64,000 nt of DNA, from positions 1 through 64,000 of IMG/VR virus record IMGVR_UViG_3300032257_000005. One strand, written 5' to 3'. Origin of the DNA: a virus (Duplodnaviria; Heunggongvirae; Uroviricota; Caudoviricetes). Both the position numbers and the translations under genes were made by a program. Shown piece after piece: positions 4,090-64,000 of the stretch. Every line of letters starts with the position of its first letter. Position 1 is the first letter of the stretch. Below the pieces are notes generated by a model. The model did no database searches. It saw nothing but the letters and a program-made list of their open reading frames with translations, and had not been told where the DNA came from.

Positions 4090-4638
4090 TTAAACCGGCT
4101 CAATCACATTCAAAGCCTGCTCAATATCAGATACACGATAGTTTTTACCACCGATATTAATCGTTGCTTTTTCATTCACATCAATGCCAGAAATCTCTTT
4201 GAATATCTCAGCGTCAAAATTCGGCAGTTTAAACAGTTTGGCTTTATCTTCTTCGCTGGCTCTTGCGTACGAAGCCTTAAACGCTTCCTGATATTCGTAA
4301 ACTTTTAAATACCCGCCTGTAGTCTCATGTGATGGATGATCGGCTTTTTCTTTGTCTGTCATATTAGCCGCATCAATCCATTGAGTTAAATCGAAGTAAA
4401 GAAAATCAGGCTTATCGGCATTGTCCCAGTCATCTATAGAACATGGTTTATTGAACACACTAAAACCATCATAATCATTGGTGCTAAAATGGCCTGTTGA
4501 GTAATTACTAATTGACCAGCATCCTGTTGACCTGTGTCCCGTTGACCTATTCCCCGTTGACCAGTGTCCCGTTGACCAGTGTCCCGTTGACCAGTGTCCC
4601 GTTGACCTATTTCCCGTTGACCAGTTTCCCGTATTCAT
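4090..4638 (-). CDS. hypothetical protein with N-terminal (S-T-G-H/N-W/R)n pentapeptide repeats
   Basis: The N-terminus, NTGNWSTGNRSTGHWSTGHWSTGHWSTGNRSTGHRSTGCWS, is encoded by tandem 15-bp repeats at ~4501-4635. Confidence 0.4.
   Translation of the reverse strand: MNTGNWSTGNRSTGHWSTGHWSTGHWSTGNRSTGHRSTGCWSISNYSTGHFSTNDYDGFSVFNKPCSIDDWDNADKPDFLYFDLTQWIDAANMTDKEKADHPSHETTGGYLKVYEYQEAFKASYARASEEDKAKLFKLPNFDAEIFKEISGIDVNEKATINIGGKNYRVSDIEQALNVIEPV
4501..4635 (-). repeat. in-frame tandem 15-bp repeat (GTCCCGTTGACCAGT-like), about 9 units
   Basis: Directly visible in the sequence. Confidence 0.8.
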
Positions 4639-6791: not shown

Positions 6792-7739
6792 TTATTTACC
6801 TTCTCGGTTGTTTGCCTTAATCGGCGTTAATAGTTGCCGGTTACGGTTCCGGCTTGCTGTATCAATAAGCAACGTATATTGCACTATGGCGGCTTCTTTA
6901 ATAGCCTTCATCTGCATTGCCATTTCAAAAAGTGCTTTGTTAAGTTTAATATTTTTATCAATATTTTTAACTTCGCGTGTAGTGCTATTTCGATAGCCTT
7001 TACCGTCAGTCCACTTGGACATTCTAATACCACCGCGTAAAGCCTTTTCCTGTACTACGTTAAATGTACTCCATAAATCCATTCCTGTATCAGAACTTCT
7101 TTTAGGTCGTAACATTTGGCTAGTCAAATTTTCTGATGAAGTAATTATTTTTTGATTCTGCTTTGGTTCTGGCAAAATATAACCTAGTGCTGTACGTGCA
7201 AATATTTCTTGTTCAGCTCGATTTAGTTCAATCGCTTGCATACCTTCAATCTGACTAGTAATTAGTGGCACTTCATCAATTACGTTGTAACTACCTTCAA
7301 TTACACGTTCAGTAGCAAAACGGTTATGACGTACACTTACTTTATTAAAAGTTGAATCAGCAATAACAATACCATTAGCACATGCCATTCTAAAAACACC
7401 TGCATGTAATACAAAGCCGCTTGATCGGTCATGGCTATTAGTAAGTAGTAATTCTACAACTGAATCACCTACTGTAATATCATCGTTTAATCTGCGAAAT
7501 CGTACTAAATGTTTTGTGAAATCTTGCTTTGATTTGTCGCGTACATTTTTTTGAGTTGCATCAACTGGATACCAGCCTTCAGCACGTAGACCATCAATAA
7601 CATTAATGGTTGGTATAAAACCGTATTTGTCGGATACATCACTATGCGGTTGTTCAGCAAATACGCTTGGTGCGGTCATTATAATTTGATCGTTTTCAAG
7701 TGCTACTGAATGTGATTTTGTTTCTTCTCTATAGTACAT
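6792..7739 (-). CDS. conserved phage protein of unknown function (possibly DUF932-like). The start is reassigned to the ATG at 7739.
   Basis: Long ORF. The track start at 7748 is a GTG inside the Shine-Dalgarno sequence AAGGTGA of the conserved 5'UTR cassette. The next ATG at 7739 has proper spacing. Confidence 0.35.
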   Translation of the reverse strand: MYYREETKSHSVALENDQIIMTAPSVFAEQPHSDVSDKYGFIPTINVIDGLRAEGWYPVDATQKNVRDKSKQDFTKHLVRFRRLNDDITVGDSVVELLLTNSHDRSSGFVLHAGVFRMACANGIVIADSTFNKVSVRHNRFATERVIEGSYNVIDEVPLITSQIEGMQAIELNRAEQEIFARTALGYILPEPKQNQKIITSSENLTSQMLRPKRSSDTGMDLWSTFNVVQEKALRGGIRMSKWTDGKGYRNSTTREVKNIDKNIKLNKALFEMAMQMKAIKEAAIVQYTLLIDTASRNRNRQLLTPIKANNREGK

Positions 7740-7795
7740 AATATTCACCTTTTTTCGGTTTGTTTATTTAACTTACACTTTGAATTATACATACA
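7740..7795 (-). promoter_or_regulatory. conserved promoter + 5'UTR cassette copy a (minus strand TGTATAATT...N~22...AACCGAAAAAAGGTGAATATT-ATG)
   Basis: -10-like TGTATAAT box, then the conserved leader AACCGAAAAAAGGTGA. Five related copies exist. Confidence 0.5.
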
Positions 7796-7841
7796 TTATT
7801 ATGAATTGCAAACTTTTTTTAAGTGTATGAAATTCAACAAC

Positions 7842-8069
7842 TTATACCTGTATTCTATCTATTAATGCATCCCACCAGCCGTTTTTACTTTTAAAACTCT
7901 TAAAAACACGTACATGATCAGGAAAAGCCATTGCTAACTTAGCCATATTACCGATATCCGCTACAGAAATAGCGTTCATCAAATGAGTTTTAAAGCTACT
8001 CGACATACCATTATTCCATTCGTATAGGTCACGTTCAGCTTCAGTTAAAACAGTTAAATTAATTCTCAT
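7842..8069 (-). CDS. hypothetical protein
   Basis: ORF only. Confidence 0.3.
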   Translation of the reverse strand: MRINLTVLTEAERDLYEWNNGMSSSFKTHLMNAISVADIGNMAKLAMAFPDHVRVFKSFKSKNGWWDALIDRIQV

Positions 8070-8182
8070 AAATCACCTATTGCAATATTAAACAAGTTAA
8101 TGCATCATGAAATCTGACCTTTCCCTTAAAGGTCTTTCATTTCTAAACTCCCCTTTAGCGGTCTTTATGGCCGCTTTTTTAA

Positions 8183-9397
8183 TTATCCTTTTACATTTAT
8201 AACTTGCTTTAATGTATGAACGATATCAACTAAATCAGATTGATTTTCCATAACTACATCAATAGATTTATATGCCGATGGTATTTCATCAATTCTTGCT
8301 TCATCTTTTGGACATTCAATACCTTCTGTTTGTGAAATTAAATCATCAACTGTATACATTTTTTTAGCTTGATTTCGCCCTAACTTTCTACCAGCACCAT
8401 GAGAACATGAACAAAATGAATCTTTATTACCTTTACCTTTTACAATAAATGATTTTGCTCCCATACTGCCGGGTATAATTCCCATATCGCCTTCACGCGC
8501 ACGAATAGCACCTTTTCGAGTAACCCAAACATTTGAACCAAAATGGTTTTCTCTTGATATATAATTGTGGTGACAATTGATTGCACTTTTATCTGTTCCG
8601 AAATTTCCAAAATGATTATGTAGAACTTTTAAAACTGCTTGCATCATAACTAAACGACTTTGTTCAGCGAAATCTTGCGCCCATAAAACAGCATTACAAT
8701 AATCATCAAATATTTCTGTATGCTCAACTAAATAAGAAAGGTCTTTATCTGGAAGAAAAGGTGTAATATGATAACGTTCCATTTCACGTTTTGCTTGTTC
8801 AATAAAATATGAACCTATTTTATTTCCAGCACCCCTTGAGCCTGAATGTAACATAACCCAAACATTATCATTTTCATCAAGACATATTTCAATAAAATGA
8901 TTTCCTCCACCAAGCGTACCCATATGCTGCCATGAATTATAACCTTTAGCTTTAGGATGCTTGAGTATTATTTCATCATAACGTGATGCTAAGGGAATCC
9001 ATCTATCTGAAGCATCTACTGAAATTGTATCTTGCCAACCACCTTTATCATTTATACCGCCATTATCAGTACGTCCATGTGGTACAGCCGCTTCAATATC
9101 AGTTCTGATAGTATGTAAATTATCCGGTAATTCATTAGCAGTAATTGTTGTTTTTACTGCAATCATTCCGCAACCAAGATCAACACCAACCGCAGCAGGT
9201 ATAATTGCGCCTTTTGATGGAATAACAGAACCGATAGTTGCACCCATACCCCAATGAACATCAGGCATAGCCGCAATATGTTTATGAATGAAATTCATTT
9301 GCGACATGTTTTCTAATTGCTTCATAGCATTATCATCTATGTCATTAGTCCATATTTTTACTGGCTTACCTTTATTTATAACTTTTTTTATTGGCAT
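8183..9397 (-). CDS. rtcB: RtcB-family RNA 3'-phosphate/2',3'-cyclic-phosphate ligase
   Basis: 404 aa. Typical RtcB segments are present: N-terminal ...AAMPDVHWGMGATIGSV..., ...HSGSRGAGNKIG..., and C-terminal ...CSCSHGAGRKLGR.... Confidence 0.8.
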   Translation of the reverse strand: MPIKKVINKGKPVKIWTNDIDDNAMKQLENMSQMNFIHKHIAAMPDVHWGMGATIGSVIPSKGAIIPAAVGVDLGCGMIAVKTTITANELPDNLHTIRTDIEAAVPHGRTDNGGINDKGGWQDTISVDASDRWIPLASRYDEIILKHPKAKGYNSWQHMGTLGGGNHFIEICLDENDNVWVMLHSGSRGAGNKIGSYFIEQAKREMERYHITPFLPDKDLSYLVEHTEIFDDYCNAVLWAQDFAEQSRLVMMQAVLKVLHNHFGNFGTDKSAINCHHNYISRENHFGSNVWVTRKGAIRAREGDMGIIPGSMGAKSFIVKGKGNKDSFCSCSHGAGRKLGRNQAKKMYTVDDLISQTEGIECPKDEARIDEIPSAYKSIDVVMENQSDLVDIVHTLKQVINVKG

Positions 9398-9409
9398 AAT
9401 AATACCTCT

Positions 9410-9880
9410 TTAATTCCAATTTTCTCTCAATTTTACTTTCTCAAATACAGTTTTATGACCTGCAATATTATTACATTCTTTATGCGCTAATACTTTATTT
9501 TCCATTCTATTACTACCACCGTGTATTAAGCTTAATAAATGTTCTTCAGACATTTCATTGTCATTCATTTCCTGATTACAATAAAAACATTTATTACCAT
9601 CACGCGCTAAAAGTTGTCTTATTTGTTTTGATACATTTCTTTTAGTTGAATTAAATCTACCATCCCATTTTTTAGCTGTTAAAAAACAATCAATAGCTTC
9701 TGTTACAAATGGCGCGCTAACACTAATACCTCTTTTACCTTTATAAATAACACCAGTACCATGTTTACAATTAAACCTTAATAACTCATAAGGATTTGTT
9801 GCAGGTATTATTTCAGCACCTAATTGTTTTAACCATTTTTCAAAATTATTAATTCTATTAGTGCCTAATCGTCTAATCAT
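9410..9880 (-). CDS. HNH endonuclease
   Basis: C-terminal ...CFYCNQEM...EHLLSLIHGGSNRMENKVLAHKECNNIAGHK is an HNH motif with Cys pairs. Confidence 0.6.
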   Translation of the reverse strand: MIRRLGTNRINNFEKWLKQLGAEIIPATNPYELLRFNCKHGTGVIYKGKRGISVSAPFVTEAIDCFLTAKKWDGRFNSTKRNVSKQIRQLLARDGNKCFYCNQEMNDNEMSEEHLLSLIHGGSNRMENKVLAHKECNNIAGHKTVFEKVKLRENWN

Positions 9881-9894
9881 TTATAAACTCCCGA

Positions 9895-10215
9895 TTATGG
9901 TCTATACCGATTAATTAAAGTATCAGCAACTTCATCAAAATCAACTTTTCTTAATCCAGCTCTGATTAAATCATTATAGATAGATGCACTAACAACAGCA
10001 TCAGCTTCACTAAAGTAATGCTTTTCCATGTCTTTAGATAAAGTTTCAATAGGTGATTCATCCATTTCAATATTAGGTTGAATTTCTAATTGTGCATAAA
10101 ACTTAGCCTTATCATCCCACAATAGCATTTGTGTTTCTGATGTAGTAATCCAACTAACCATCATCCACGTTTCGATAGTTGAAAATTCATTTGGTTGCAT
10201 TATGCTGACTCCCAT
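9895..10215 (-). CDS. hypothetical protein
   Basis: ORF only. Confidence 0.3.
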   Translation of the reverse strand: MGVSIMQPNEFSTIETWMMVSWITTSETQMLLWDDKAKFYAQLEIQPNIEMDESPIETLSKDMEKHYFSEADAVVSASIYNDLIRAGLRKVDFDEVADTLINRYRP

Positions 10216-10409
10216 TGTAATTGTTGTGTATCATTTTCATAATTAAGCTGCTCAAATAACTGTACATGCCCATCATGCTTAGGCGTGTAAAAATTTATTA
10301 TTTGTTGTAATGAATAATCAGGTGTTTCATTAATACAATCCATTAGCTCATAATAAATATCAGTTGGGCATACAGTTAAAGCCTTTTGTTCTAAATCATC
10401 CCGTTTCAT
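10200..10409 (-). CDS. hypothetical protein
   Basis: ORF only. Confidence 0.3.
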   Translation of the reverse strand: MKRDDLEQKALTVCPTDIYYELMDCINETPDYSLQQIINFYTPKHDGHVQLFEQLNYENDTQQLQWESA

Positions 10410-11913: not shown

Positions 11914-12138
11914 CTAATCATCCAATTTAAAGTGTTCAGTTTCACCAGCGTTTTCAAAACGTTCTTTCATTTTTGTAAATTCACTATCAATTGCATTAAT
12001 AATTGCATCAATTTGTTTTTTATTATATTTATAATTTGATTTATCTGATAGATTACCAATTAAACGTATTTGTTTTATTGTTTTATTAGTTCTAATTGTG
12101 GCAAGACTTTTAAATTTTTCTTCACGATCAGTTTTCAT
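11914..12138 (-). CDS. hypothetical protein
   Basis: ORF. It is preceded by cassette copy e (AACCGAAAAAAGGTAAATGAA-ATG). Confidence 0.35.
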   Translation of the reverse strand: MKTDREEKFKSLATIRTNKTIKQIRLIGNLSDKSNYKYNKKQIDAIINAIDSEFTKMKERFENAGETEHFKLDD

Positions 12139-12356
12139 TTCATTTACCTTTTTTCGGTTGTTAGTTTAATGGCCGTATTGTTCAACAATAGTAAATTTAC
12201 CATTATTAGTATGATCTTTAGTAGTTATGCTTAAAATATAATCTTCAGCTTCATCTATTGTGTTGAATACTAAAGGTACATTTTTTCATTTGCAATATAT
12301 TCAGAACAATGTGTTTTATTATACGTGTATAATATTGAATACATTTTAATTCTCCT

Positions 12357-12665
12357 TTATAAACTCAAGTACAAGCCAGTTTCATTTTCAAAATATTCTT
12401 TCAGTTGATCAAAATAAAGACCTTCAACTTCAGAACGTACTGTGTAATTCATTGATCTGATATAACCAAATTCAGCACTATATGTATCATCAACTTTTAA
12501 TATCAGCTTAAAATAATTTGCTTTGTTACGTGCTTTACTAGGGAAGCGAAAGGATACTGAATTTTCATCCTTTGCAAAATTCTTTGCACCAATCATTGCT
12601 ACTAATCTATTGATACCGTTGTTAGCTTGGGCTAATTGGTTAAGTGCTGTATTTGCGTCTATCAT
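12357..12665 (-). CDS. hypothetical protein (the start is reassigned to the ATG at 12665)
   Basis: ORF. The track start is a GTG inside the Shine-Dalgarno sequence of cassette copy b. Confidence 0.35.
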   Translation of the reverse strand: MIDANTALNQLAQANNGINRLVAMIGAKNFAKDENSVSFRFPSKARNKANYFKLILKVDDTYSAEFGYIRSMNYTVRSEVEGLYFDQLKEYFENETGLYLSL

Positions 12666-12716
12666 GTTGTTCACCTTTTTTCGGTTCGTTTAAGTTATGA
12701 TTTAATTATACACACA
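12666..12716 (-). promoter_or_regulatory. conserved promoter + 5'UTR cassette copy b (GTGTATAATT...AACCGAAAAAAGGTGAACAAC-ATG)
   Basis: Sequence repeat, see 7740..7795. Confidence 0.5.
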
Positions 12717-28057: not shown

Positions 28058-28453
28058 ATGAAAAAAGAATTACATTTAACAAAAAAAGATTTTCGTATTG
28101 AATGGTTTTCCGGTCAAGGTGCTGGTGGTCAGCATAGAAATAAACATCAGAACTGTTGTCGTATAATTCATAAAGAAACGGGATTAAAAGCACAAGGCAC
28201 TGAATCTAGAGAAAGACAATCAAATCAAAGAACAGCATTTACCAGACTTGCTAAATTAGTTATTGCTCATTATTACGCTGAAGATGAAAAAATAAGAATA
28301 AAAGCAGATGAAGTAATAAGGAATTATCACGGCGTTAGAAATGAAGTACATGATAAGGCTAGTGGGTTAAAATTATCATATAAAGATATTGTAGAAAACG
28401 GCAATATTGGAAAGATGATTGAAGCAAGACGTAAAATAATGGGATGCGAATAA
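28058..28453 (+). CDS. GGQ-motif peptidyl-tRNA hydrolase, ArfB/PrfH-like (release-factor catalytic domain only)
   Basis: ...FSGQGAGGQHRNKHQNCCRIIHKETGLKAQGTESRERQSNQRTAFTRLAKLV... matches the RF-1/ArfB GGQ-domain consensus (G-x-GGQHVNK...RSQ..NR..A...L). At 131 aa it has no codon-recognition domains. Confidence 0.65.
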   Translation: MKKELHLTKKDFRIEWFSGQGAGGQHRNKHQNCCRIIHKETGLKAQGTESRERQSNQRTAFTRLAKLVIAHYYAEDEKIRIKADEVIRNYHGVRNEVHDKASGLKLSYKDIVENGNIGKMIEARRKIMGCE

Positions 28454-33768: not shown

Positions 33769-33867
33769 ACGGGAGTGGTGGAAATGGCAGACACGCTATA
33801 AGGTAGTGATGATAAAAGCATAGGCTGGTGCTTCATCGTGCAGGTTTGAATCCTGCCTTCCGTACCA
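33769..33867 (+). tRNA. non-canonical 99-nt tRNA-like gene (acceptor ACGGGAG/CTTCCGT with one G-U pair, T-arm GCAGG-TTTGAAT-CCTGC, discriminator A, CCA encoded); anticodon not assignable
   Basis: Acceptor and T-arm pairings are exact and a 3-bp D-stem (GTG/CAC) is possible. The body is ~10-20 nt too long for any standard class. A 5-bp stem (AAGCA/TGCTT) closes an 8-nt loop TAGGCTGG. Confidence 0.35.
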
Positions 33868-33888: not shown

Positions 33889-33963
33889 GTCGAGTTCATC
33901 TAACGGTTAGGATATCAGGTTTTCAACCTGAGTATGGGAGTTCAATTCTCCCACTCGACACCA
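33889..33963 (+). tRNA. tRNA-Glu (anticodon UUC)
   Basis: Clean cloverleaf: acceptor GTCGAGT/ACTCGAC, anticodon arm TCAGG-TTTTCAA-CCTGA (anticodon TTC), T-arm GGGAG-TTCAATT-CTCCC, discriminator A, CCA encoded. Confidence 0.8.
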
Positions 33964-53701: not shown

Positions 53702-56509
53702 ATGCCTCGTTATTTTAACGGATTAAACGAATACTTAACTGCTGCTGCATTATCTGCACATCAGATAACAGGTGATGTTTCTATTGCTGTTACATTTAAT
53801 CCAGATACTTTACCGGCAAGTAATGCCGCAGAATGGGCTGTATTTCAATCTATAGGTGGAGAAACAACAGCTACTAATGCTCTTTATGGTGTTGGAATAA
53901 GAAATAATAGTGGAACATCATATTTTTCATTTTTTCATGAAAGTGGATCAGGAGTGAATCATAGGGTTGATTCAAATATTACCGTTAGTGCGGATACTGA
54001 ATATAAAATTATTGTTATACGTAATACATCAGCATTAACATATCAACTTATTGTTAACGGAACTGATCATGGTACTTTTTCATACACAACAAATCCTTCA
54101 GGAGGAAGTAGTACAAGATTAAGAATAGGTTCTGCATACAGTGGAGGTACTTCTGCTGCTCAATGGTTTAATGGTACTATAAGTGAGGTAGGTATATGGG
54201 ATGCAGGAATAAGTACCGCTGAAGCTATTTCATATACGGATGGATCGTATGAAGTTAAAAATATTGATACTTCTAATCTTGTTAGTCATTATAGAATAAC
54301 AGGTGGTATATCACCGGAACCTGATACCTTTGGATCAGTTGGAAGTTTAGTTATAAGTGGTACGCCAAATTCACCAGTTATAACAACACAAACTAGTATA
54401 ACGCCAAACTTAACTAATAATTCAAAACAAGGTTATGCTAGAAGTGGTGTTTTTAATATTATAAGTGATAATGAATCTTTATATATAAGAGATTCTCAAT
54501 GGTCTGTTATCGCTTCTGATACAGCCGTACTATCTGCTTTAACCAGTGTAACTAATCATCTTGGTGATATAGACGTTTATAACGGAATGATCTATACGGT
54601 AGCTAATAGATTTTCTACTTGTGCTGATAAAACAAATCATCAAATAGCAATTTATAACGCTTCAACTTTAGCATTAACTTCATCAAGAAGTATATCCGCA
54701 TCAGATCATACCGCCGCAGCCGCGATAGCGATAAACCATAGAGCTAATGAAATATATCTAGGATCTTTTTGTGATGGTGCGAATATAGAGATCCATGATT
54801 TAGATACATTAGCCTATTCAAGTTCATTAACACTTAGTTATAACGTTTCAAGCATTCAAGGTATCGCATATAAGAATGGTTATATTTATGCAATGGGTAC
54901 GGATGGAGATCTTTTTCAAATAAGACGAAGTGATGGAGATATAATTTGGCATGAGAATATGGGCGGTGGTTATCCTGAATATGAAGGTATTGATTTTTCA
55001 GGTGATGAATTTAGATACTTAGTTCATGCTTCATCAATTGTATATAACATACTGTTTATAACAGGTGTTCCAGTTGGTAATATTGATTTTAATGTAACTG
55101 GATCAAAGCATTTACATAAAGCAGATAGTACAAATGTATCGGTAATAACAGATTCAACTATTAACTTAGATGTACTTGATTCAAAACACATTCATAAATC
55201 AGATATATTTAACATAGTACAAACATATAATTTAAATATATTAGATTCTAAGCACTCACATAAAGCAGATAAAACTAATTTAAGTTTAACTGTTGATTTA
55301 GATACAAAAGACTCAAAACATACTCACAAGTCTGATAAAGTTAATTTAAATCAAACTCATGATTTAAATACACTAGATAGTAAGCATATTAATAAATCTG
55401 ATAATTTAATAATTGATCAAATACATAATTTAAACGCATTAGATAGCAAACACTTACACAAATCTGATAAGACTAATTTAGATCAAACTAATAACTTAAT
55501 TATATTTGATTCTAAACACATTCATAAATCTGATAAATCTAATTTAGATCAAACGCATTATTTAAATATTATTGATAGTAAACATCTGCATAAATCAGAT
55601 GAAACTTTATTCAATTTAACAATAACGCTTAATACATTAGATTCAAAACATATTCATAAATCTGAAAATAATGCTGTTGATCAAACTCATAATATCAATG
55701 TATTAGATAGTAAGCATTTACATAAATCAGATATTGCTGGATTAGAAGTTACAGAAGGTCTTGATGTACGAGATTCAAAACATCTTCATAAATCTGATAA
55801 AACTAACTTAGATCAAATACATGATTTAGGTGTTTTAGATAATACGCATAATCATACATCAGAACAAACTTCATTTAATTTAACTGTTGAATTAAATACT
55901 AAAGATTCTAAGCATATTCATAAATCTGATAATACTGCTATTGATCAGATACATAATTTAAATGCTTTAGATAGTAAACATACACATACTTCTGATAATG
56001 CTGCACTTGAATCAACAGTAGGATTACAAGTAAATGATTCTAAGCATCTACATAAATCGGATAAAACTAATTTAGATCAAGTTCATAATTTATCAGTTAA
56101 AAGTACAAAACATATTCATAAATCTGAAAATGTTGTAATACAATCTACATTAGAACTTGATGTACATGATAATAAGCATTTACATAAATCTGAAAATGCA
56201 GGTTTAATACAAACATTAACGTTATCAATTAAGAGTGCAAAACATATTCATAAGTCAGATAATGCTCAGGTAAATCAAACTAATATATTAAGAGCATTAG
56301 ACGGAAAACATTTGCATAAGTCTGATAAAGCTAATATTGTACAGAAGCATATATTAAAACCGAAAGATGCTAAACATTTACACAAGTCTGATTTCATTGA
56401 TTGGACACCAGCCGTTCCGTATGTTTCTTCACCAGAACGTACTATACTAGGAAAATATGAGGATAGAACTATATACTCTAAATATGTATCTAGGGTAATA
56501 CAATCATAA
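53702..56509 (+). CDS. tail fibre/spike-like protein (935 aa) with an N-terminal lectin/LamG-like jelly-roll region and ~19 tandem 22-aa His/Lys-rich repeats
   Basis: N-terminus ...VSIAVTFNP...EWAVFQSIGG...LRIGSAYSGG...WFNGTISEVGIWD... is LamG-like. The repeat unit is LDSKH(L/I)HKSDKTNLDQ(T/I)HNLN(A/I). Confidence 0.5.
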   Translation: MPRYFNGLNEYLTAAALSAHQITGDVSIAVTFNPDTLPASNAAEWAVFQSIGGETTATNALYGVGIRNNSGTSYFSFFHESGSGVNHRVDSNITVSADTEYKIIVIRNTSALTYQLIVNGTDHGTFSYTTNPSGGSSTRLRIGSAYSGGTSAAQWFNGTISEVGIWDAGISTAEAISYTDGSYEVKNIDTSNLVSHYRITGGISPEPDTFGSVGSLVISGTPNSPVITTQTSITPNLTNNSKQGYARSGVFNIISDNESLYIRDSQWSVIASDTAVLSALTSVTNHLGDIDVYNGMIYTVANRFSTCADKTNHQIAIYNASTLALTSSRSISASDHTAAAAIAINHRANEIYLGSFCDGANIEIHDLDTLAYSSSLTLSYNVSSIQGIAYKNGYIYAMGTDGDLFQIRRSDGDIIWHENMGGGYPEYEGIDFSGDEFRYLVHASSIVYNILFITGVPVGNIDFNVTGSKHLHKADSTNVSVITDSTINLDVLDSKHIHKSDIFNIVQTYNLNILDSKHSHKADKTNLSLTVDLDTKDSKHTHKSDKVNLNQTHDLNTLDSKHINKSDNLIIDQIHNLNALDSKHLHKSDKTNLDQTNNLIIFDSKHIHKSDKSNLDQTHYLNIIDSKHLHKSDETLFNLTITLNTLDSKHIHKSENNAVDQTHNINVLDSKHLHKSDIAGLEVTEGLDVRDSKHLHKSDKTNLDQIHDLGVLDNTHNHTSEQTSFNLTVELNTKDSKHIHKSDNTAIDQIHNLNALDSKHTHTSDNAALESTVGLQVNDSKHLHKSDKTNLDQVHNLSVKSTKHIHKSENVVIQSTLELDVHDNKHLHKSENAGLIQTLTLSIKSAKHIHKSDNAQVNQTNILRALDGKHLHKSDKANIVQKHILKPKDAKHLHKSDFIDWTPAVPYVSSPERTILGKYEDRTIYSKYVSRVIQS
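55090..56400 (+). repeat. 66-bp tandem coding repeat array (~19-20 units, DSKHxHKSDK...)
   Basis: Directly visible periodicity. Confidence 0.85.
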
Positions 56510-57765: not shown

Positions 57766-58211
57766 TGCCATTTATTAGTTTTACAAATTTACCAAGCTTT
57801 GAACATCGTTTAGATGCTTATGCAAAACTATTAAATGTAAAATCAGAAAAACTTGTTAGAAAAGTTGGCTTTGATTTATTTCGTGGAATAACTGAAAGAA
57901 CACCTGTTGATACAGGTTACGCAAGAGCCAGTTGGAATATTAGTGTCGGTTCACCTGATAGAACTGTACCTGATAAAATTGAAGGTGGTGAATCAGCCGC
58001 TAAACAAAGAAATCAACAACAGCTTGGTGGTATAAATGCTGCTGCACTTAAAAACTTTCCTGTTATCTATATAACTAATCCATTGGATTATATTGTATTT
58101 CTTGAACAGGGTAGAACAAAACAACTACCTGAAGGAAAAGGTTACATGGTGCAACGTACATTGGCTGATGTTGAAATGAAATTAAAATTAGCTATCAGTG
58201 AGTTATTATAA
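57764..58211 (+). CDS. hypothetical structural protein (head-tail connector/adaptor class by position)
   Basis: ORF only. Confidence 0.3.
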
Positions 58212-58606
58212 TGTCATTCACTACGATAAGGCGTGATATTTTTAATCGATTTGAAGCTAATTGGGTTACAACACCTATAGCTTATCAAAACATACCTTAT
58301 AAACCATCATTCAATCAGCCGTGGGTTAAGATTAATTTATTTGATGAAAGTTCAAGCCGTATTAATGTAGGACTACCTGCTATTTACAGACAAGTTGGAA
58401 CAGTTATCATTGAAATACATACAGAAGATGCAAAAGGTATTCAGGAAGGTCGTGGATATGGCGATACTATAGCGGCTATTTTTCGTGATCAGCAATTCAG
58501 TGGTTTAACGTTTAGTGATGTTAATGTAACAGCCGTAGGCAAGAATAACGGATATTGGCAAACTAATGTTATAGCGCCTTTTTATTGGGATGGTACTTAT
58601 CCGTGA
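58211..58606 (+). CDS. hypothetical structural protein
   Basis: ORF only. Confidence 0.3.
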   Translation: MSFTTIRRDIFNRFEANWVTTPIAYQNIPYKPSFNQPWVKINLFDESSSRINVGLPAIYRQVGTVIIEIHTEDAKGIQEGRGYGDTIAAIFRDQQFSGLTFSDVNVTAVGKNNGYWQTNVIAPFYWDGTYP

Positions 58607-58722
58607 GTCCTGCCACAAGGGTCTTGCATGAAACCTTAATACGAATATTAAAAGGTGGAGTAAAAGCATATGAGGTTTGGTATAAAGCTACACTTGAAGA
58701 AAATAAATTAAAAAAGAAATAA

Positions 58723-59298
58723 TTATTTATATCTCCAACATAATGCTCTACACCAAGATCCCTGCCAATCTGTACGCCTTCCATATTTTCTATGTAGCTT
58801 TGTCATTTCTGTTAAATTATCCCCACAAATATTATCCCAAATATCATGCCAAACAGCATTATATCTTTTACCTTTTGGTGGTTTCCATTCAAAGGCATCT
58901 GCATTTATAATATTTACACGTTTATCCTTATTATAATATTCAGCAACTAATGAAATAACATCACTGGATTTTTCAATCACTGTTACAGAGGTAACTAAAT
59001 CACTTTTTAATATTTCAGTAAGTGCAACACCAAGACCAAGACCGTTAATTAAAATATCACCACCTTTTTTAGCTTCTCTAATAAACTCATGATGATCTTC
59101 TATTTCTGCTGGCGTATTAGACATAATAGCTGTACCGTTACGCATTAATCGTTTAAATTTTCCGGGCTTAACATATCTTGAACCCATATGAAAAGAAGCC
59201 CTAATATTATAAAGCTTTGCATCATCTTCTGTTATTTCAAAATCTTCTACTGTCCAATTACCTGAATTGCCATTAGGAATATTAATATCTATTTTCAT
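58723..59298 (-). CDS. class I SAM-dependent methyltransferase-like protein
   Basis: ...GGDILINGLGLGVALTEIL... is a glycine-rich motif-I loop followed by an acidic residue. Confidence 0.35.
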   Translation of the reverse strand: MKIDINIPNGNSGNWTVEDFEITEDDAKLYNIRASFHMGSRYVKPGKFKRLMRNGTAIMSNTPAEIEDHHEFIREAKKGGDILINGLGLGVALTEILKSDLVTSVTVIEKSSDVISLVAEYYNKDKRVNIINADAFEWKPPKGKRYNAVWHDIWDNICGDNLTEMTKLHRKYGRRTDWQGSWCRALCWRYK

Positions 59299-59555
59299 TA
59301 TATTGTCCTATAAGATCGTAATACACCAAATTCAGCATAACTTTGCCGCATTTGTGTTTCGTTAATAGTCGCATCAATCAATCCAAGTAATTGATCGTTT
59401 TCAACACAATGAACACGCATTAACATTAATGAATGTATTGCTGCATCAAATTGCTCATGGGTTGTATTTGTATTATAAATTTTACGTACTTCACATAAGT
59501 CTTTATAGCAATTTTTAATATCAGAATAATAATCTTTCAGTTCGTCTACTTGCAT
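59298..59555 (-). CDS. hypothetical protein
   Basis: ORF only. Confidence 0.3.
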   Translation of the reverse strand: MQVDELKDYYSDIKNCYKDLCEVRKIYNTNTTHEQFDAAIHSLMLMRVHCVENDQLLGLIDATINETQMRQSYAEFGVLRSYRTI

Positions 59556-59556
59556 T

Positions 59557-59880
59557 TTAATCCACCTTTTTATTACTTAAAACTTTATTTGCAACATCCC
59601 AACCTTTTAAATATCTTTCGATGTAATCACTACTTTTACCTTCTCGATTTAATGATGCTATTGATATATCTCTTGCATTTTCATTTGAAACATTAAATAT
59701 AACAATTGAATCAAGAACACCCGCTAAAAAATTACTAAGCTGATCTTTTGTAATTATGTTTTTTTCACCAGTTAGCGCGATAGAAATAAGATCAACTTCA
59801 GCACCCCATAATTGCCATTTAAAATCTATCTCCATATTTTGATTTTTAATTAAACTTTCATACATTTTATTTAACCTCAT
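59557..59880 (-). CDS. hypothetical protein
   Basis: ORF only. Confidence 0.3.
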   Translation of the reverse strand: MRLNKMYESLIKNQNMEIDFKWQLWGAEVDLISIALTGEKNIITKDQLSNFLAGVLDSIVIFNVSNENARDISIASLNREGKSSDYIERYLKGWDVANKVLSNKKVD

Positions 59881-60073
59881 TAAAAGTACATAATGAAATT
59901 CTTACAGTTAACGCTTCCCCTTTCTCTTTTTCATTATAATTATTCATTACTTTAGTTTTACCTTCAACTATAGTTCCACTTGCCCATTCATCATCTAATG
60001 ATTCAACCATCATAGTAAAATTACCTTTACGATTATGACTAACGTTATAAATTTTACCTGTTTCAATTTTCAT
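59867..60073 (-). CDS. hypothetical protein
   Basis: ORF only. Confidence 0.3.
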   Translation of the reverse strand: MKIETGKIYNVSHNRKGNFTMMVESLDDEWASGTIVEGKTKVMNNYNEKEKGEALTVRISLCTFNEVK

Positions 60074-60416
60074 TTCTTTTTATCCTCTATCCACCATTGC
60101 AGCCAATCAATAAGTTTTTGTGCCTGCTCAATGTTAGTAGGCTGTATTTTACTAGTATGTAAAAGTTCGCCGCTAATTTGTATAAATTTAGATTCACCAT
60201 TCATCACCATGTATTAGTAATGTACATATATCACCTTCTCTATCCATAACATCAATATGATCTAATTTTAAACCATTTTCTTCACTCATTTCTTCCACAC
60301 TCCATTTAATAATCTACCTAACAATGTATTAAATAATCTACCGATTACCTTACCCTTACTTGCAGCGTTTACATGACCTAATAAACGTGCAAGTGCGTAT
60401 AGTGTTGAACGTATTT

Positions 60417-61223
60417 TCATAATGTTTCAGCTTTAGCTATACGCTGTACAAAAGTTTGATTTTCATCTTTATATTCTTCATGACTTTTTATTGTTGCTTT
60501 AAATGTTGCTGGTAAACCTAAATCTAAACCTGTTGGCGCACTACCTTTATATACAATAAGTTCACCAGTATCTTTAACAAACTTTTCTATATAAACAGTT
60601 CCATAAAACCCATCAAAAGAAAACCTAGCAATCGGCGTAACATTAAAATCTTCACGCTTTTTTACTTCACCATAATATTCACCATTTGGCTCAGGTAATT
60701 TAATAAGGTGAGGAAATACATTTTTTAATGCTTCCTGAAGTGATTGTAAAATAACATCATCTTCAGAATCTAATGATAAGAAATATAAAATATAGCTATC
60801 AGGTGCATTTTCAAATGCTTCTGTATGACATTGACCAAACGGCCATACTTTACGACTGATTTTATCAAAAGCATCTTCACGGCGTTGGCGTTCACGTTCC
60901 TCAAAACGCTCTTGTGCTTCTTTTTCTGATGCTAATCTTGCAGCTTCAACTTCTTCACTAGTACGGCGGCGTATTTCTTCAAGACTTTCAAGCGTACTAT
61001 CAACAAACTTTCCATCTAATCTGCTAACAATATCCTTTGCTTTAACTTCAGCTTTTTCTTTGTCTATAGATAGATTACGCACATAGTAATCACGAGTGAT
61101 TGTAAAAGAACCTTCTGGTGTAAAAACTTTTTCAGGATAGCGAACTCGCAAAGTATACATTTTTGTTTGTTCGCCAGTGCTGATGTAGTAAATAGTATTG
61201 CTTGTGTTGTCTTGTGGTAACAT
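60417..61223 (-). CDS. hypothetical protein with a central acidic coiled coil (the start is reassigned to the ATG at 61223)
   Basis: ORF. The track start is a GTG inside the Shine-Dalgarno sequence of cassette copy c. Confidence 0.35.
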   Translation of the reverse strand: MLPQDNTSNTIYYISTGEQTKMYTLRVRYPEKVFTPEGSFTITRDYYVRNLSIDKEKAEVKAKDIVSRLDGKFVDSTLESLEEIRRRTSEEVEAARLASEKEAQERFEERERQRREDAFDKISRKVWPFGQCHTEAFENAPDSYILYFLSLDSEDDVILQSLQEALKNVFPHLIKLPEPNGEYYGEVKKREDFNVTPIARFSFDGFYGTVYIEKFVKDTGELIVYKGSAPTGLDLGLPATFKATIKSHEEYKDENQTFVQRIAKAETL

Positions 61224-61262
61224 ATCATTCACCTTTTTTCGGTTAGTTGTTTATTTAATTCT
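61224..61262 (-). promoter_or_regulatory. conserved 5'UTR cassette copy c (AACCGAAAAAAGGTGAATGAT-ATG)
   Basis: Sequence repeat. The -10 box is weaker here and lies in the upstream coding sequence. Confidence 0.4.
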
Positions 61263-61474
61263 TTATATTTATTTTTAAAATAATCTTCCTGATATGACTT
61301 AACAGTTAAAGTATAAAATGATTCATTTTTACAAAACTCAACACCATTAACATCATCTTCTTTAGATAATAAATCACCAATTTTTTCTATTTTATCAGAT
61401 TCTTCTGTATTTCCTTCAATTGAAAATAATCTTACTGATCTACTTCTATTTGCTGATAATTTAATTAATCTCAT
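61229..61474 (-). CDS. hypothetical protein
   Basis: ORF only. Confidence 0.3.
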   Translation of the reverse strand: MRLIKLSANRSRSVRLFSIEGNTEESDKIEKIGDLLSKEDDVNGVEFCKNESFYTLTVKSYQEDYFKNKYKELNKQLTEKR

Positions 61475-61483
61475 AACAATACC

Positions 61484-61615
61484 TTAAGCTTTAACTAATT
61501 CGCCGTTTTTATATTTGTAAATTGTTTGGTGTTGGTTTTCTTTTTCTACCTTAACAACATAAGTGCCTATTGCTGTTGTTAGAACTAATGCTAATGCGAT
61601 CAATATTGTTTCCAT
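61484..61615 (-). CDS. tiny membrane protein (~43 aa, METILIALALVLTTAIGTYVV...); not in the track
   Basis: Start ATG behind cassette copy d. Confidence 0.3.
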   Translation of the reverse strand: METILIALALVLTTAIGTYVVKVEKENQHQTIYKYKNGELVKA

Positions 61616-61670
61616 TTCGTTTCACCTTTATTCGGTTAATTTGTTACTCTATGATTCAAATTATACACAT
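61616..61670 (-). promoter_or_regulatory. conserved promoter + 5'UTR cassette copy d (GTGTATAATTT...AACCGAATAAAGGTGAAACGAA-ATG)
   Basis: Sequence repeat. Confidence 0.5.
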
Positions 61671-61856
61671 ATATTCAAGATATACAAGTGAATTTATGAA
61701 AAAAGATGAAAATAATTTCAATATCCAGCTAAGTTATTGTTTTTGTTTGTAATATTAACATGACATTGTGGGCGATTCTAAGCCGTTCTAAGCGGTCTTA
61801 CTGTTAACCCATGTAACGCCATTGGATTTCATTTAAAATAGCCCACGTATTGACTA

Positions 61857-62027
61857 CTATAGCGATTCAAGTGCTAACCGTATGCCTTTACTCAGATTAC
61901 CACCACCTAATTTCTCACCTTTTTCAGCTAATCTATCGCACAACGTAATATTGCGGCGTTTCTGCACATCTTTATCAAGTCGATTTCGACCAGCACCTTT
62001 ACGCTTACCACCATGTTTGTTTTTCAT
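61857..62027 (-). CDS. small basic protein (56 aa, MKNKHGGKRKGAGRNRLDKDVQKRRNITLCDRLAEKGEKLGG...); not in the track
   Basis: Clean ORF with a stop/start junction to the 62030..62215 gene. Possibly nucleic-acid binding. Confidence 0.3.
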   Translation of the reverse strand: MKNKHGGKRKGAGRNRLDKDVQKRRNITLCDRLAEKGEKLGGGNLSKGIRLALESL

Positions 62028-62029
62028 TA

Positions 62030-62215
62030 CTATAGCCTTACTTTTTTATTTATATTAAAAAACGTACCATCATTGCATCGAACATTATTATTATTAACCA
62101 CTAAGTAATCAACTCCATTATGTTTTAAACATTCAGCAACAGCTATATTAATTTCCCATCCGTTAACTGTGCTACACCCACTTAAAAATAAAATAGATAT
62201 TAGTATTGTTTTCAT
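62030..62215 (-). CDS. lipoprotein-like small secreted protein (MKTILISILFLSGCS)
   Basis: Signal peptide plus lipobox LSGC. Confidence 0.35.
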   Translation of the reverse strand: MKTILISILFLSGCSTVNGWEINIAVAECLKHNGVDYLVVNNNNVRCNDGTFFNINKKVRL

Positions 62216-62219
62216 CTTA

Positions 62220-62594
62220 TTATTCCTTGCTTATTAAAAGTCTTAATTTATTCATTTCTTCTATATGAAATTCATAATCATCAACTATGCCAGTTTCCCA
62301 ATCTTTATGTGTATGAAAGCTACACGTAATTTCATATATACCGGGATCTTCATCAGGTAAATCGACAGGTAATCCAATGTATTCCGCTTCTGAACCATTA
62401 TCAAAAAATGATGGATGAATATTAGGTGCTACTATTACAAATACATTATGAGATATATCTACACCTATAATCCATTGTGAATTATGTTCTGAATCCCAAT
62501 TAGGTTCCGTTTCATCATCAGTTAATGTTATATTTTCAGGTGCTTGAACTTTTAATATATCATCAAGTAATTTATTCATATTTTCACCATCCAC
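62220..62594 (-). CDS. hypothetical protein
   Basis: ORF only. Confidence 0.3.
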   Translation of the reverse strand: MDGENMNKLLDDILKVQAPENITLTDDETEPNWDSEHNSQWIIGVDISHNVFVIVAPNIHPSFFDNGSEAEYIGLPVDLPDEDPGIYEITCSFHTHKDWETGIVDDYEFHIEEMNKLRLLISKE

Positions 62595-63249
62595 TATGTA
62601 TATCTGTATATACTTGTACTTGTTTTCTTATCTGATTCATTGCTGGCATATGATAAAAAGATAATCTAAAAAAATAACGCCAACCTCTAGTAGTAGCTGG
62701 CATACACTTATGTAATGTGCTTCGACTAAATTTTAAAATATGTCCTGCCTGTAAAATATCAATAAAACTATCATCAGAAATTTTATCAATTCTTTTTGAT
62801 ACTGATTGCCATACTTTATTTTCATCTACGTCTAAATATAAATCAGTATTCATAAAAGCTGTATTACATAAATCATGTTCGGTATCAATATGACAAATAT
62901 AATGTTTTATATCATTATTCAATGTAGATAAATCAGGTTGTGAACTTCTATCTTTTCTTACAACACCGTCACAATGCCAACCGGGTATACATGGATAAAA
63001 ATCCTGCATTAACATAACAGATTTAGTATCTATTACGGGATGATAACCCATTAAACTATGTCTATATATTTCTTTTTCTACATCTTTTATTATTTTATCC
63101 ATAATATTATTAGTTAATGGCCCTGCATTTTGTCTGCACCACTTCCATGATCCACCATATATCATAGGTTCATCTTGAATAACATGTTGAGATTCAACAC
63201 CAGTAACACTATTTATATATTGATAGTTTGATTTAAATTTATACTTCAT
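62584..63249 (-). CDS. hypothetical protein, possibly 2OG-Fe(II) oxygenase-like (H-x-D ... H)
   Basis: ...CIPGWHCDGV... and later ...HILKF... His residues. Weak evidence. Confidence 0.25.
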   Translation of the reverse strand: MKYKFKSNYQYINSVTGVESQHVIQDEPMIYGGSWKWCRQNAGPLTNNIMDKIIKDVEKEIYRHSLMGYHPVIDTKSVMLMQDFYPCIPGWHCDGVVRKDRSSQPDLSTLNNDIKHYICHIDTEHDLCNTAFMNTDLYLDVDENKVWQSVSKRIDKISDDSFIDILQAGHILKFSRSTLHKCMPATTRGWRYFFRLSFYHMPAMNQIRKQVQVYTDIHSGW

Positions 63250-63673
63250 TTTGTTTTACCATTCTATCGTATAAAACTACATTTACAGTTGCGGCTAAAT
63301 TCATACAACCGTTAGTTGGTATATAAACAGTATCACGACACCATGAAGTAATACGTTCACCTAATGTTGCATCTTCAGCACCAAATATATAAAACGCACG
63401 TTCTGGATGCTTGTATTCACTCAAAGGTATAGCACCTTCAATTAAATCAACTGCAACAGGTACGCAACCATGTGGAATAATATCTTTTAGATTATCAACA
63501 TTAAATAATGGTTTATGCCTAATCTGTTTCATGGTATCAGTTGGAAATGCTTTAAATCGCTTATTTGTATAAGCAATAAATTTAGCATCGTAACAACCAA
63601 CAGCACGTAAAGCTGCACCAACATTAACACCTGATTTCGGATTATCTAATCCTATACATGCATAGCCTCTCAT
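63239..63673 (-). CDS. SPOUT-family RNA 2'-O-methyltransferase (TrmL/TrmH-like)
   Basis: ...YACIGLDNPKSGVNVGAALRAVGCY... (motif 1), ...RAFYIFGAEDATLGERI... (motif 2), ...VYIPTNGCMNLAATVNVVLYDR... (motif 3). At 144 aa it matches the TrmL size. Confidence 0.6.
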   Translation of the reverse strand: MRGYACIGLDNPKSGVNVGAALRAVGCYDAKFIAYTNKRFKAFPTDTMKQIRHKPLFNVDNLKDIIPHGCVPVAVDLIEGAIPLSEYKHPERAFYIFGAEDATLGERITSWCRDTVYIPTNGCMNLAATVNVVLYDRMVKQNEV

Positions 63674-63972
63674 AACAATTCACATACAGGTGCTTTAACA
63701 AAACCTGATTTAATTCGCTTGCCTGTATCCTTAACAATACCTGCACTAATTAAAGCATCAAGCATACCTTCATTTTCACTGTAATCTTTAATAACAACTT
63801 CGTTATCATAAATTTCTTCTTGAACGTTAATAGTTGCAACAGCTATACGTTCACCAGTCGCTTTTTCATTTAGAACTAAAGCAGTTCTACCGTTATAATA
63901 AGTTTGACGTTCTATTACACAATCCCAATGTTTAAATATCATTTCAAATAACCTCCATTGATATGAAATCAT
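63670..63972 (-). CDS. hypothetical protein
   Basis: ORF with stop/start overlap to the SPOUT gene. Confidence 0.3.
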   Translation of the reverse strand: MISYQWRLFEMIFKHWDCVIERQTYYNGRTALVLNEKATGERIAVATINVQEEIYDNEVVIKDYSENEGMLDALISAGIVKDTGKRIKSGFVKAPVCELL

Positions 63973-64000
63973 TTTTAGATTTTTCTTTTATTTCATTTGC

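Follow-up and report, generated by a model that had tools for sequence, protein, structure and literature searches.

The phage DNA analyzed here encodes an intact, full-length RtcB, and the reading we favour, at a probability of about 60%, is that this RtcB reseals RNA cut by nucleases, that the HNH gene upstream of it is a selfish element, and that the GGQ protein and the SPOUT methyltransferase are products of separate, independently mobile accessory genes. The window, i.e. the whole stretch of 64,000 nt that was analyzed, comes from a metagenomic contig of 86,295 bp and holds the following features:

8183..9397, minus strand: rtcB, predicted 404-aa 3'-phosphate/5'-OH RNA ligase of the E. 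coli RtcB type
9398..9409, minus strand: HNH-rtcB junction, 12 nt, with an AGAGG Shine-Dalgarno sequence read from the sequence
9410..9880, minus strand: free-standing HNH endonuclease, 156 aa (HNH_5 profile, PHROG 7785)
28058..28453, plus strand: mini release factor, 131 aa, with a GGQ (RF-1) domain and an RF1/RF2 C-terminal segment
33769..33867, plus strand: aberrant 99-nt type-II tRNA-like gene (ARAGORN 'tRNA-???'; Rfam 14 bits, E=5)
33889..33963, plus strand: tRNA-Glu(UUC), the only sound tRNA in the window (ARAGORN; Rfam RF00005, 62.8 bits)
63239..63673, minus strand: single-domain SpoU-class SPOUT methyltransferase, 144 aa (PF00588)

Tailed-phage genes in the window include those for TerS, TerL, portal and major head protein. 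The TerL shares no more than 37% identity with that of any cultured phage, and the phage is a previously unsampled, uncultured low-GC lineage of ~86 kb; a marine origin, suggested by MAG and TARA sample names, is only a guess. A megablast search with positions 7800-10300 against 50,697 phage records gave no match and no record was found for the exact RtcB protein, so there was no near-identical genome for comparison. No terminal or direct repeats that would link the ends of the window were found. Judged by the strength of their profile matches, the features listed above are not chance ORFs.

The initial annotation had described a full-length RtcB with an HGAGR motif, and both points were confirmed. 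The protein matched PF01139 over the entire profile (1-426/426, E=7.3e-122, 408 bits) and PHROG 1075, 'tRNA splicing ligase' (E=4e-149), its full-length alignment with E. coli K-12 RtcB gave 54% identity (E=2e-164), and the HGAGR motif was found at H333-R337. In E. coli RtcB, Mn1 is bound by Cys78/His185/His281 and Mn2 by Asp75/Cys78/His168, and His337 is guanylylated (PMC9745838). In the alignment, phage residues D73, C76, H167 and H184 correspond to E. coli D75, C78, H168 and H185, and H277, H333, R337 and R341 to H281, H337, R341 and R345. The metal-ligand His and Cys residues, on which the earlier claim of a working ligase had been made to depend, are thus conserved: both Mn2+ sites (C76/H184/H277 and D73/C76/H167) are kept with identical residues throughout, as is the guanylylated histidine (H333). 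By this comparison the phage RtcB looks catalytically competent. A classification as 'not E. coli type' from NCBIfam scores was rejected, since E. coli K-12 RtcB, at 54% identity, gives the same score pattern.

The rtcB block runs leftward together with genes for an HTH regulator, a PolB-like exonuclease and a DUF932 protein, and the ORFs flanking rtcB are the HNH gene, small ORFs without assignment and DUF932. Neither the RtcA cyclase nor the RtcR regulator was found among these flanking ORFs; at related bacterial rtcB loci RtcA was present in 5/80 and RtcR in 7/80. Scans for promoters and terminators over 5.8-13.5 kb gave fewer sites than, or no more sites than, shuffled sequence, so that the operon boundaries and the early timing of the block are read from gene order only. 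PADLOC gave no defence-system match for RtcB, the GGQ protein, SPOUT, DUF932 or a 354-aa ORF.

If active as the conserved residues suggest, RtcB would guanylylate itself on H333 and pass the GMP to the 3'-phosphate of an RNA, and the 5'-OH would then attack the GMP-activated 3' end. During infection the enzyme would most likely reseal tRNAs, and possibly other RNAs of translation, that have been cut by metal-independent RNases of the host, such as anticodon nucleases, toxin RNases and abortive-infection effectors. Such resealing would keep phage translation going and would make RtcB a one-enzyme equivalent of T4 Pnkp plus Rnl1. We infer the ligase activity, the in vivo substrate and the counter-defence role from family and residues; to our knowledge there is no direct in vivo experiment on the function of any phage RtcB, and the published papers likewise infer its role. 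RNA repair against host nucleases, as proposed in the initial annotation, is the accepted reading for phage RtcB, which has been interpreted as repairing cleaved tRNAs (PMC7824862), but the joint action of three genes that had been attached to it found no support as a linked system.

Phage RtcB is already a common and known class of accessory gene, and the one described here is an ordinary member of it. RtcB (PHROG 1075) was present in 691 of the 50,697 phage records, and IMG/VR contained 28 RtcB loci with 42-78% identity, the closest relatives (65-78%) being found only on uncultured viral or MAG contigs. Viral contigs with an RtcB up to 78% identical share almost no other gene with the window, and this, together with the low TerL identity (≤37%), indicates that rtcB is mobile in its own right, separately from the phage backbone. 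When the 148 genes neighbouring rtcB in 27 viral loci were assigned to Pfam families, no family recurred in more than two of the 148. A conserved rtcB operon in phages was therefore rejected, as no partner family recurred among the neighbours. An affinity for tRNA genes was observed, as a tRNA lies within 500 nt of rtcB in 5 of 26 de-duplicated viral loci versus 1.1±0.9 expected (observed value reached in 1/2000 permutations), with no tRNA nearby in the remaining 21. In the closest relative (L001) rtcB follows directly after a tRNA located 25 nt upstream, and in two other loci (L025 and L081) rtcB lies inside a tRNA array. The phage studied here has only one sound tRNA, and its rtcB thus stands outside any tRNA-array context.

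The 131-aa GGQ protein had been described as ArfB/PrfH-like. Its presence, its RF-1 domain (PF00472, E=1.6e-15, 57.5 bits versus 35, starting at residue 3) and its GGQ motif, G23-G24-Q25, invariant across 64 family members, were all verified, but the likeness did not hold, as the protein fell far below the cut-offs of the PrfH model TIGR03072 (41.4 bits, cut-off 166.65, profile positions 99-169/200 only) and of the ArfB model (25 bits, cut-off 100). The N-terminal domain of PrfH, an RF-domain-2-like module for recognition of the damaged decoding centre, is missing and PrfH structures align over only ~66 columns. The last 45 residues correspond to the C-terminal end of RF1/RF2, unlike the basic tail of ArfB. 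In both profile and fold comparisons the nearest solved relatives were RF2/RF1 (residues ~232-362), and ArfB/ICT1 chains were absent both at E≤1e-3 and from the 50 best matches by fold. On sequence and predicted fold, we therefore class the protein as an RF1/RF2-derived mini-factor that is neither PrfH nor ArfB. Its gene is located between a ParB-methyltransferase gene and the gene for the small terminase. The family is large, with ~1,200 metagenomic relatives, and in 24 of 57 de-duplicated viral loci it is wedged between tRNAs, often with tmRNA genes nearby. That the family is a phage codon-independent rescue factor, which in phages like the present one would form with RtcB, in trans, a viral equivalent of PrfH-RtcB divided over two genes, is a tentative and rather unlikely idea; if true, the GGQ protein would free stalled ribosomes and the ligase would reseal the tRNA or rRNA cut by the host.

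The SPOUT protein had been proposed to be a TrmL-like 2'-O-methyltransferase, of which the general class could be retained and the specific likeness could not. It matched PF00588 (SpoU_methylase, E=4.8e-14, 53 bits versus 29.7) and its AF2 model (pLDDT 88) has a knotted alpha/beta fold. Scores to the TrmL model TIGR00185 (17 bits, cut-off 190.6) and to RlmB (18 bits, cut-off 160) were both low, and Foldseek matched the model to many SpoU-class enzymes (probability 1.00, TM 0.7-0.8), rRNA and tRNA 2'-O-methyltransferases equally well. A profile of the family gave matches of only 19-22 bits against the PDB, and hence no substrate could be assigned. The gene is located in a separate 7-kb accessory island inside the tail module.

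These assignments bear on the wider proposal of a coordinated toolkit for RNA repair and ribosome rescue, in which RtcB would reseal cut tRNA or rRNA, the GGQ protein release peptidyl-tRNA and SPOUT re-modify or immunise the repaired site, so that phages would have their own form of PrfH-RtcB2 or Pnkp-Hen1 with the components acting in trans. We consider this improbable. All three genes are intact, phage tRNA arrays are enriched in both the RtcB and the GGQ family, which occur together inside one array of 28 tRNAs (L081), and on one viral contig (L006/L032) rtcB lies 2.7 kb from a 72%-identical SPOUT gene on the same strand. Two gammaproteobacterial RtcBs of the same subfamily are operonic with a protein that passes the PrfH cut-off, the true PrfHs at bacterial loci L139 and L144 scoring 209 and 181 bits on TIGR03072, and rescue followed by repair has been demonstrated for PrfH-RtcB2 (PMC9304027). 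Against this, the genes lie in three modules on differing strands, GGQ 18.7 kb and SPOUT 53.8 kb from rtcB, and within the fetched flanks of ±6-10 kb the families co-occurred rarely (RtcB-GGQ in 1/80 loci, RtcB-SPOUT in 2/12, GGQ-SPOUT in none). The GGQ protein is without the N-terminal recognition domain of PrfH and fails the PrfH and ArfB models, and SPOUT is assignable neither to TrmL nor to any target. In mycobacteriophages the RtcB and RF-1-domain genes belong to different genome groups; an apparent co-occurrence (counts of 221 and 200) was rejected because the phages listed are of ~56-84 kb versus ~155 kb, the RtcB list being a spread sample down the ranking. With the proposed memberships of the PrfH and TrmL families failing and no linkage between the genes, the three should not be annotated as a system. 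What survives is a looser link, as each of the three families, RtcB, GGQ and HNH, shows significant enrichment beside phage tRNA arrays, and they are so connected via the tRNA-array gene pool, which has already been described.

The tRNA genes mentioned in the initial annotation are one sound tRNA-Glu(UUC) and the 99-nt tRNA-like gene, which fails Rfam and in which we read a tRNA-Leu-like D arm and an 8-nt anticodon loop. Such an unusual gene raises the alternative that RtcB serves RNA processing of the phage itself, e.g. by maturing or joining tRNA-like transcripts of this kind. This would agree with the role of RtcB as the tRNA-splicing ligase of archaea and metazoa (PMC10630183) and with the position of rtcB directly after a tRNA in L001 and inside the arrays of L025 and L081. 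We nevertheless regard it as very unlikely: the ARAGORN intron search found no intron-bearing tRNA, which counts against a splicing role, a splicing endonuclease was not found either, the odd tRNA-like gene lies 24 kb from rtcB on the other strand, and most phage rtcB loci (21/26) have no tRNA nearby.

The placement of the HNH gene directly upstream of rtcB in the same operon, as first proposed, is reasonable. The 12-nt gap with its AGAGG ribosome-binding site leaves no room for a separate promoter, and the two genes are thus probably co-transcribed. The protein is composed of an N-terminal domain of ~75 aa, to which no function was assigned, and a C-terminal HNH domain (HNH_5, E=2.2e-8, 34 bits, cut-off 27.5, residues 98-144) with an intact motif (CFYC, i.e. 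CxxC, at 98-101, H114 and H133); the match to PHROG 7785 spans residues 18-153. From the side of rtcB, an HNH gene was adjacent in 0/27 other viral loci. From the side of HNH, only three relatives were found in 5.8e9 metagenomic clusters; two of them lie on contigs that extend to the downstream gene, which in neither case was rtcB. Full-length relatives in Bordetella and Burkholderia phages are found among early/recombination genes, without rtcB, and five relatives of the HNH domain all lie between tRNAs in arrays. The family is thus rare and its presence sporadic, in unrelated contexts, and PADLOC gave only weak generic PtuB (HNH) matches. By these comparisons, made from both sides, the HNH gene and rtcB do not form a conserved pair.

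A functional pair, in which HNH attacks nucleic acid of the host or of a competitor and RtcB protects or repairs the RNA of the phage, is most improbable. In its favour, only 12 nt separate the two genes, which are translationally coupled, HNH-Rnl2 ligase fusions with a similar proposed role exist in some jumbo phages (PMC7824862), and a lineage-specific partnership is compatible with the absent synteny elsewhere. Against it, no other contig among those compared shows this adjacency, and the 5'-phosphate/3'-OH ends produced by HNH nucleases are not ones on which RtcB acts. Among the cargo of tRNA arrays, HNH homing endonucleases are the most widespread, and they co-occur with rtcB near the arrays (PMC5966550, PMC8421152). 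The HNH protein is probably a selfish, free-standing homing endonuclease of this sort, which would travel with tRNA-array cargo, be co-transcribed with rtcB here without being a biochemical partner of the ligase, and perhaps help the rtcB cassette to move between phages.

Taken together, what this check yields in practice is a negative, in that a label such as 'RtcB + PrfH-like + TrmL-like toolkit' is unwarranted. If the RtcB is active, the phage is one more lineage among many with a one-step RNA-repair ligase, and this would support RNA-cleaving host defences as a widespread pressure on phages. Of more use are two by-products, both testable leads to the way in which ribosome rescue is combined with RNA repair: the existence of bona fide rtcB-prfH operons built on an E. 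coli RtcB1-like ligase, and the abundance of a mini-release-factor family in phage tRNA arrays.

Compared with known systems, the SPOUT protein resembles TrmL (YibK), the tRNA Cm34/Um34 methyltransferase, in size, in having a single SPOUT domain and in its knotted fold of the SpoU class, and JGI labels its relatives TrmL, but in sequence and fold it is no closer to TrmL than to RlmB, TrmH, TrmJ or AviRb. As in the cargo of phage tRNA arrays (HNH, RF-1-domain, Pth, tmRNA and rtcB genes, with T4 SegB as the mobility paradigm), the HNH, GGQ and RtcB families recur by arrays (PMC5966550, PMC8421152), whereas this phage has no array and carries the three genes dispersed over its genome. With PrfH-RtcB2 the phage shares a GGQ hydrolase and an RtcB in one genome; in contrast to that system its GGQ protein has only 131 aa, is without the PrfH N-terminal domain and is encoded 18.7 kb away on the opposite strand. 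The phage RtcB also scored 128.6 bits on the model of PrfH-coupled RtcB (TIGR03073, cut-off 271.8), a failure that is not decisive since the RtcB of L144, operonic with a true PrfH, fails as well (143.7).

The ligase itself is close to E. coli RtcB in length (404 vs 408 aa), identity (54%), Mn2+ sites, histidine nucleophile, HGAGR motif and NCBIfam score pattern, and differs from the E. coli rtcBA/RtcR arrangement by being phage-encoded in a leftward block with neither RtcA nor RtcR nearby. Like the RtcBs of other phages (jumbo Erwinia, Pseudomonas and Caulobacter phages, Pseudomonas phage pf16 and mycobacteriophages of ~60-84 kb; 42-61% identity), it stands alone as an accessory gene without a constant set of neighbours, of a family recurrently found near tRNA genes, and unlike those this copy has an HNH gene in its transcription unit. 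In T4, Pnkp and Rnl1 repair tRNA that has been cut by the PrrC anticodon nuclease. RtcB differs from these in joining 3'-phosphate and 5'-OH ends directly with GTP, with no healing by a kinase-phosphatase and no ATP-grasp ligase, but by analogy the role would be the same, the resealing of host-cut tRNA so that the phage can keep translating.

The rtcB gene and the HNH endonuclease gene directly upstream of it are encoded as follows:

8183-9397, minus strand, rtcB, 404-aa protein; Pfam RtcB from end to end (E=7e-122) and PHROG 1075 "tRNA splicing ligase" (E=4e-149)
9410-9880, minus strand, HNH gene, 156-aa protein; HNH_5/HNH domain in the C-terminal third

These ORFs and those of the GGQ and SPOUT proteins below agree exactly with the initial annotation, and the end-to-end match bears out a full-length rtcB. 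E. coli K-12 RtcB aligns over its full length with 54% identity (E=2e-164). Defined roles are assigned in the E. coli enzyme to two manganese-binding sites and a guanylylated histidine (PMC9745838), which align as follows:

Residues of E. coli RtcB and their counterparts in the window RtcB
Mn1 site: E. coli Cys78, His185, His281; window RtcB C76, H184, H277
Mn2 site: E. coli Asp75, Cys78, His168; window RtcB D73, C76, H167
Guanylylated histidine: E. coli His337; window RtcB H333

In the HGAGR region R337 and R341 are also conserved. Loss of the metal-ligand His/Cys had been named as the observation that would speak against the ligase; since the Mn-site residues and the guanylylated histidine are conserved, RtcB stands as a predicted ligase. 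Its mechanism would most likely be one-step resealing of host-cleaved tRNA/RNA. NCBIfam scores alone would set the protein apart from the E. coli type, but E. coli K-12 RtcB gave the same score pattern, and this reading was dropped. Among the NCBIfam models the best match is one for RtcB with an intein, split at residue 75/76, that is at the catalytic cysteine C76, and therefore some relatives have an intein at this position; the window copy is intein-free. Judged from this model, the intein would be a second kind of selfish element targeting rtcB, besides the HNH gene.

The HNH protein has its motif residues in place (CxxC at 98-101, H114 and H133). Only 12 nt, with an AGAGG ribosome-binding site, separate its stop codon from the rtcB ATG, which makes co-transcription very likely and agrees with the single operon proposed earlier. 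The HNH gene as a conserved partner of rtcB was rejected from both sides. HNH adjoined rtcB in none of 27 other viral rtcB loci, and in a Pfam survey of 148 neighbours of rtcB each family turned up twice at most. In the locus with the closest rtcB relative (L001) the place of the HNH gene is occupied by a terminator and a promoter together with a tRNA whose end is 25 nt upstream of rtcB. The HNH protein itself is rare: a search of 5.8 billion clusters gave three relatives (53-59%). rtcB was absent downstream in both relatives with a visible downstream gene, where small unknown ORFs are found, and the third has only short contigs that reveal no neighbouring genes. In Bordetella and Burkholderia phages, full-length relatives lie among early/recombination genes, and HNH-domain relatives in other viral loci were in five of five cases placed between tRNA genes within arrays. 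HNH homing endonucleases are the commonest tRNA-array cargo and are found with rtcB near arrays, and T4 SegB drives inheritance of the T4 tRNA region (PMC5966550, PMC8421152). Because its distribution fits this published pattern, we read the HNH gene as a putative selfish homing endonuclease that landed in the rtcB transcription unit; it may also mobilise rtcB.

RtcB in a phage is not unusual. Homologues were found by tblastn in 691 of 50,697 phage records, ranging from jumbo Erwinia, Pseudomonas and Caulobacter phages to ~60-kb mycobacteriophages, and IMG/VR yielded 28 RtcB loci with 42-78% identity. Viral contigs bearing copies up to 78% identical share almost no other gene with the window, and rtcB here thus acts like a mobile accessory gene.

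The window comes from a tailed phage: it encodes both terminase subunits, small and large, a portal, a head-morphogenesis protein and the major head protein. It has no close cultured relative: megablast of 7800-10300 against the phage collection gave no match, and no entry exceeds 37% identity to its large terminase. An 86,295-bp metagenomic contig on record carries the exact GGQ, SPOUT and HNH proteins. An independent assembly of the same phage (L129, a 65,241-bp contig of Logan assembly SRR9045858) ends 168 nt past the HNH stop codon, within the first 52 rtcB codons; this break could stem from variation within the population at the HNH/rtcB junction. A conserved motif of ~30 nt (7737-7769, 12136-12168, 12663-12692 and 61221-61253; minus-strand reading AACCGAAAAAAGGTGAA..ATG) lies at or close to start codons of leftward genes, three of them visible in the ORF list, and may be a common translation-initiation or early regulatory element. 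A 935-aa ORF (53702-56509, plus strand) with a Laminin_G_3 match in the contig annotation carries ~18 tandem 66-nt (22-aa) repeats at 55.1-56.4 kb with a recurring SKHxHKSD motif, and probably serves as tail fibre or decoration protein. A 182-aa ORF (4090-4638, minus strand) begins with seven 15-nt (5-aa) tandem repeats, G-H/N-W/R-S-T, and has no Pfam match.

The initial annotation had joined RtcB, a PrfH/ArfB-like GGQ hydrolase and a TrmL-like SPOUT methyltransferase into one RNA-repair and ribosome-rescue toolkit. This proposal held neither by membership (PrfH, ArfB, TrmL) nor by linkage; the observation behind it proved correct, and part of the interpretation has support. The 131-aa GGQ protein (28058..28453, plus strand) contains a well-supported RF-1 domain in which the GGQ motif is invariant, but it is neither PrfH (41 bits, cut-off 166.65) nor ArfB (25 bits, cut-off 100). 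An N-terminal recognition domain is absent. Family profile and AlphaFold model were nearest to the last third of RF2/RF1, i.e. the GGQ domain plus C-terminal segment; the PrfH match was confined to the GGQ core, and ArfB was not among the matches. Its gene sits 18.7 kb away from rtcB on the opposite strand, with the gene for a ParB-methyltransferase on one side and that for the small terminase on the other.

The SPOUT protein (63239..63673, minus strand) is a genuine SpoU-class methyltransferase, but its TrmL identity was not upheld (17 bits against 190.6); the predicted fold is equally like rRNA and tRNA 2'-O-methyltransferases, with TrmL ranking 19th and lower. The gene lies outside the rtcB-bearing block; it belongs to a ~7-kb island, made up of 23 small leftward genes and inserted between the genes for tail terminator and tail tube. 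The position is unusual for what appears to be an accessory or moron island. The island (58569-64000, minus strand, continuing to ~65.7 kb of the contig; L124:7992-15105 in the fetched locus) breaks the rightward structural module and is bordered by the tail terminator at 58211-58606. In it a 191-aa ORF (58723-59298, minus strand) has a marginal match to the rRNA adenine dimethylase family (RrnaAD) over residues 88-142 (23.7 bits, cut-off 24), and may be a second SAM-dependent methyltransferase.

Co-occurrence of the toolkit pairs in fetched flanks was rare: RtcB and SPOUT in 2 of 12 loci, RtcB and GGQ in 1 of 80, SPOUT and GGQ in none. Among the mycobacteriophages listed, those bearing RtcB are ~56-84 kb, whereas those bearing an RF-1 domain are ~155 kb. 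In two gammaproteobacterial MAG loci (L139:4962-6827 and L144:5001-6812) rtcB is followed within 1-4 nt by a protein above the PrfH equivalog cut-off. Their RtcB is of the same, E. coli RtcB1-like subfamily as the window protein and fails the curated PrfH-coupled RtcB model; the predicted gene order thereby shows that rtcB-prfH operons exist on a different RtcB clade. Because of these two loci the window's ligase subfamily is compatible with a ribosome-repair pairing, and we therefore keep a modest probability for cooperation of phage RtcB and the mini-release-factor (mini-RF) GGQ protein in trans.

Upstream of tRNA-Glu, at a distance of 21 nt, is an aberrant tRNA-like gene of 99 nt (33769-33867, plus strand). 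The acceptor stem is perfect, CCA is encoded, the T arm is canonical and the variable arm long; the D arm we read as tRNA-Leu-like, by comparison with E. coli tRNA-Leu. The anticodon stem consists of A and U alone and contains a mismatch, the 8-nt loop reads GGTAGTGA, and the Rfam tRNA score reaches only 14 bits. Aberrant type-II-like genes that look similar by eye occur in phage arrays (L080:12086-12172, L112:18836-18926). The window gene may be a tRNA in decay, one of the frameshift-suppressor kind, or a decoy for nucleases. A family of long (95-101 nt) tRNA genes, called tRNA-Ile(UAU) or '???', with the anticodon-loop sequence TTATAC and a conserved long variable arm, also recurs in phage arrays (L060:4400-4494, L080:13692-13786, L096:1969-2063, L108:8876-8971; related genes at L058:4700-4800 and L072:14788-14887).

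Phage tRNA arrays are a strikingly frequent setting of the mini-RF family, with a tRNA within 100 nt in 24 of 57 de-duplicated viral loci against 3.1±1.7 (maximum 9) in 2,000 permutations of random placement within the same loci. In 23 of the 57 loci, tRNAs lie on both sides, and tmRNA is nearby in several. Enrichment near tRNAs holds for rtcB as well (a tRNA within 500 nt in 5 of 26 de-duplicated viral loci, 1.1±0.9 expected), and a single 28-tRNA array (L081) holds both genes. RF-1-domain proteins, Pth, tmRNA and HNH genes have already been linked to tRNA arrays in mycobacterial arrays (PMC5966550), so the association of mini-RF and rtcB with arrays extends known biology. Phage RtcB is likewise already known: in a comparative study of jumbo phages, RtcB ligases are described as supplementing the phage tRNAs by resealing tRNAs cut by metal-independent RNases (PMC7824862), and the window presents such a phage RtcB with a hitch-hiking HNH gene.
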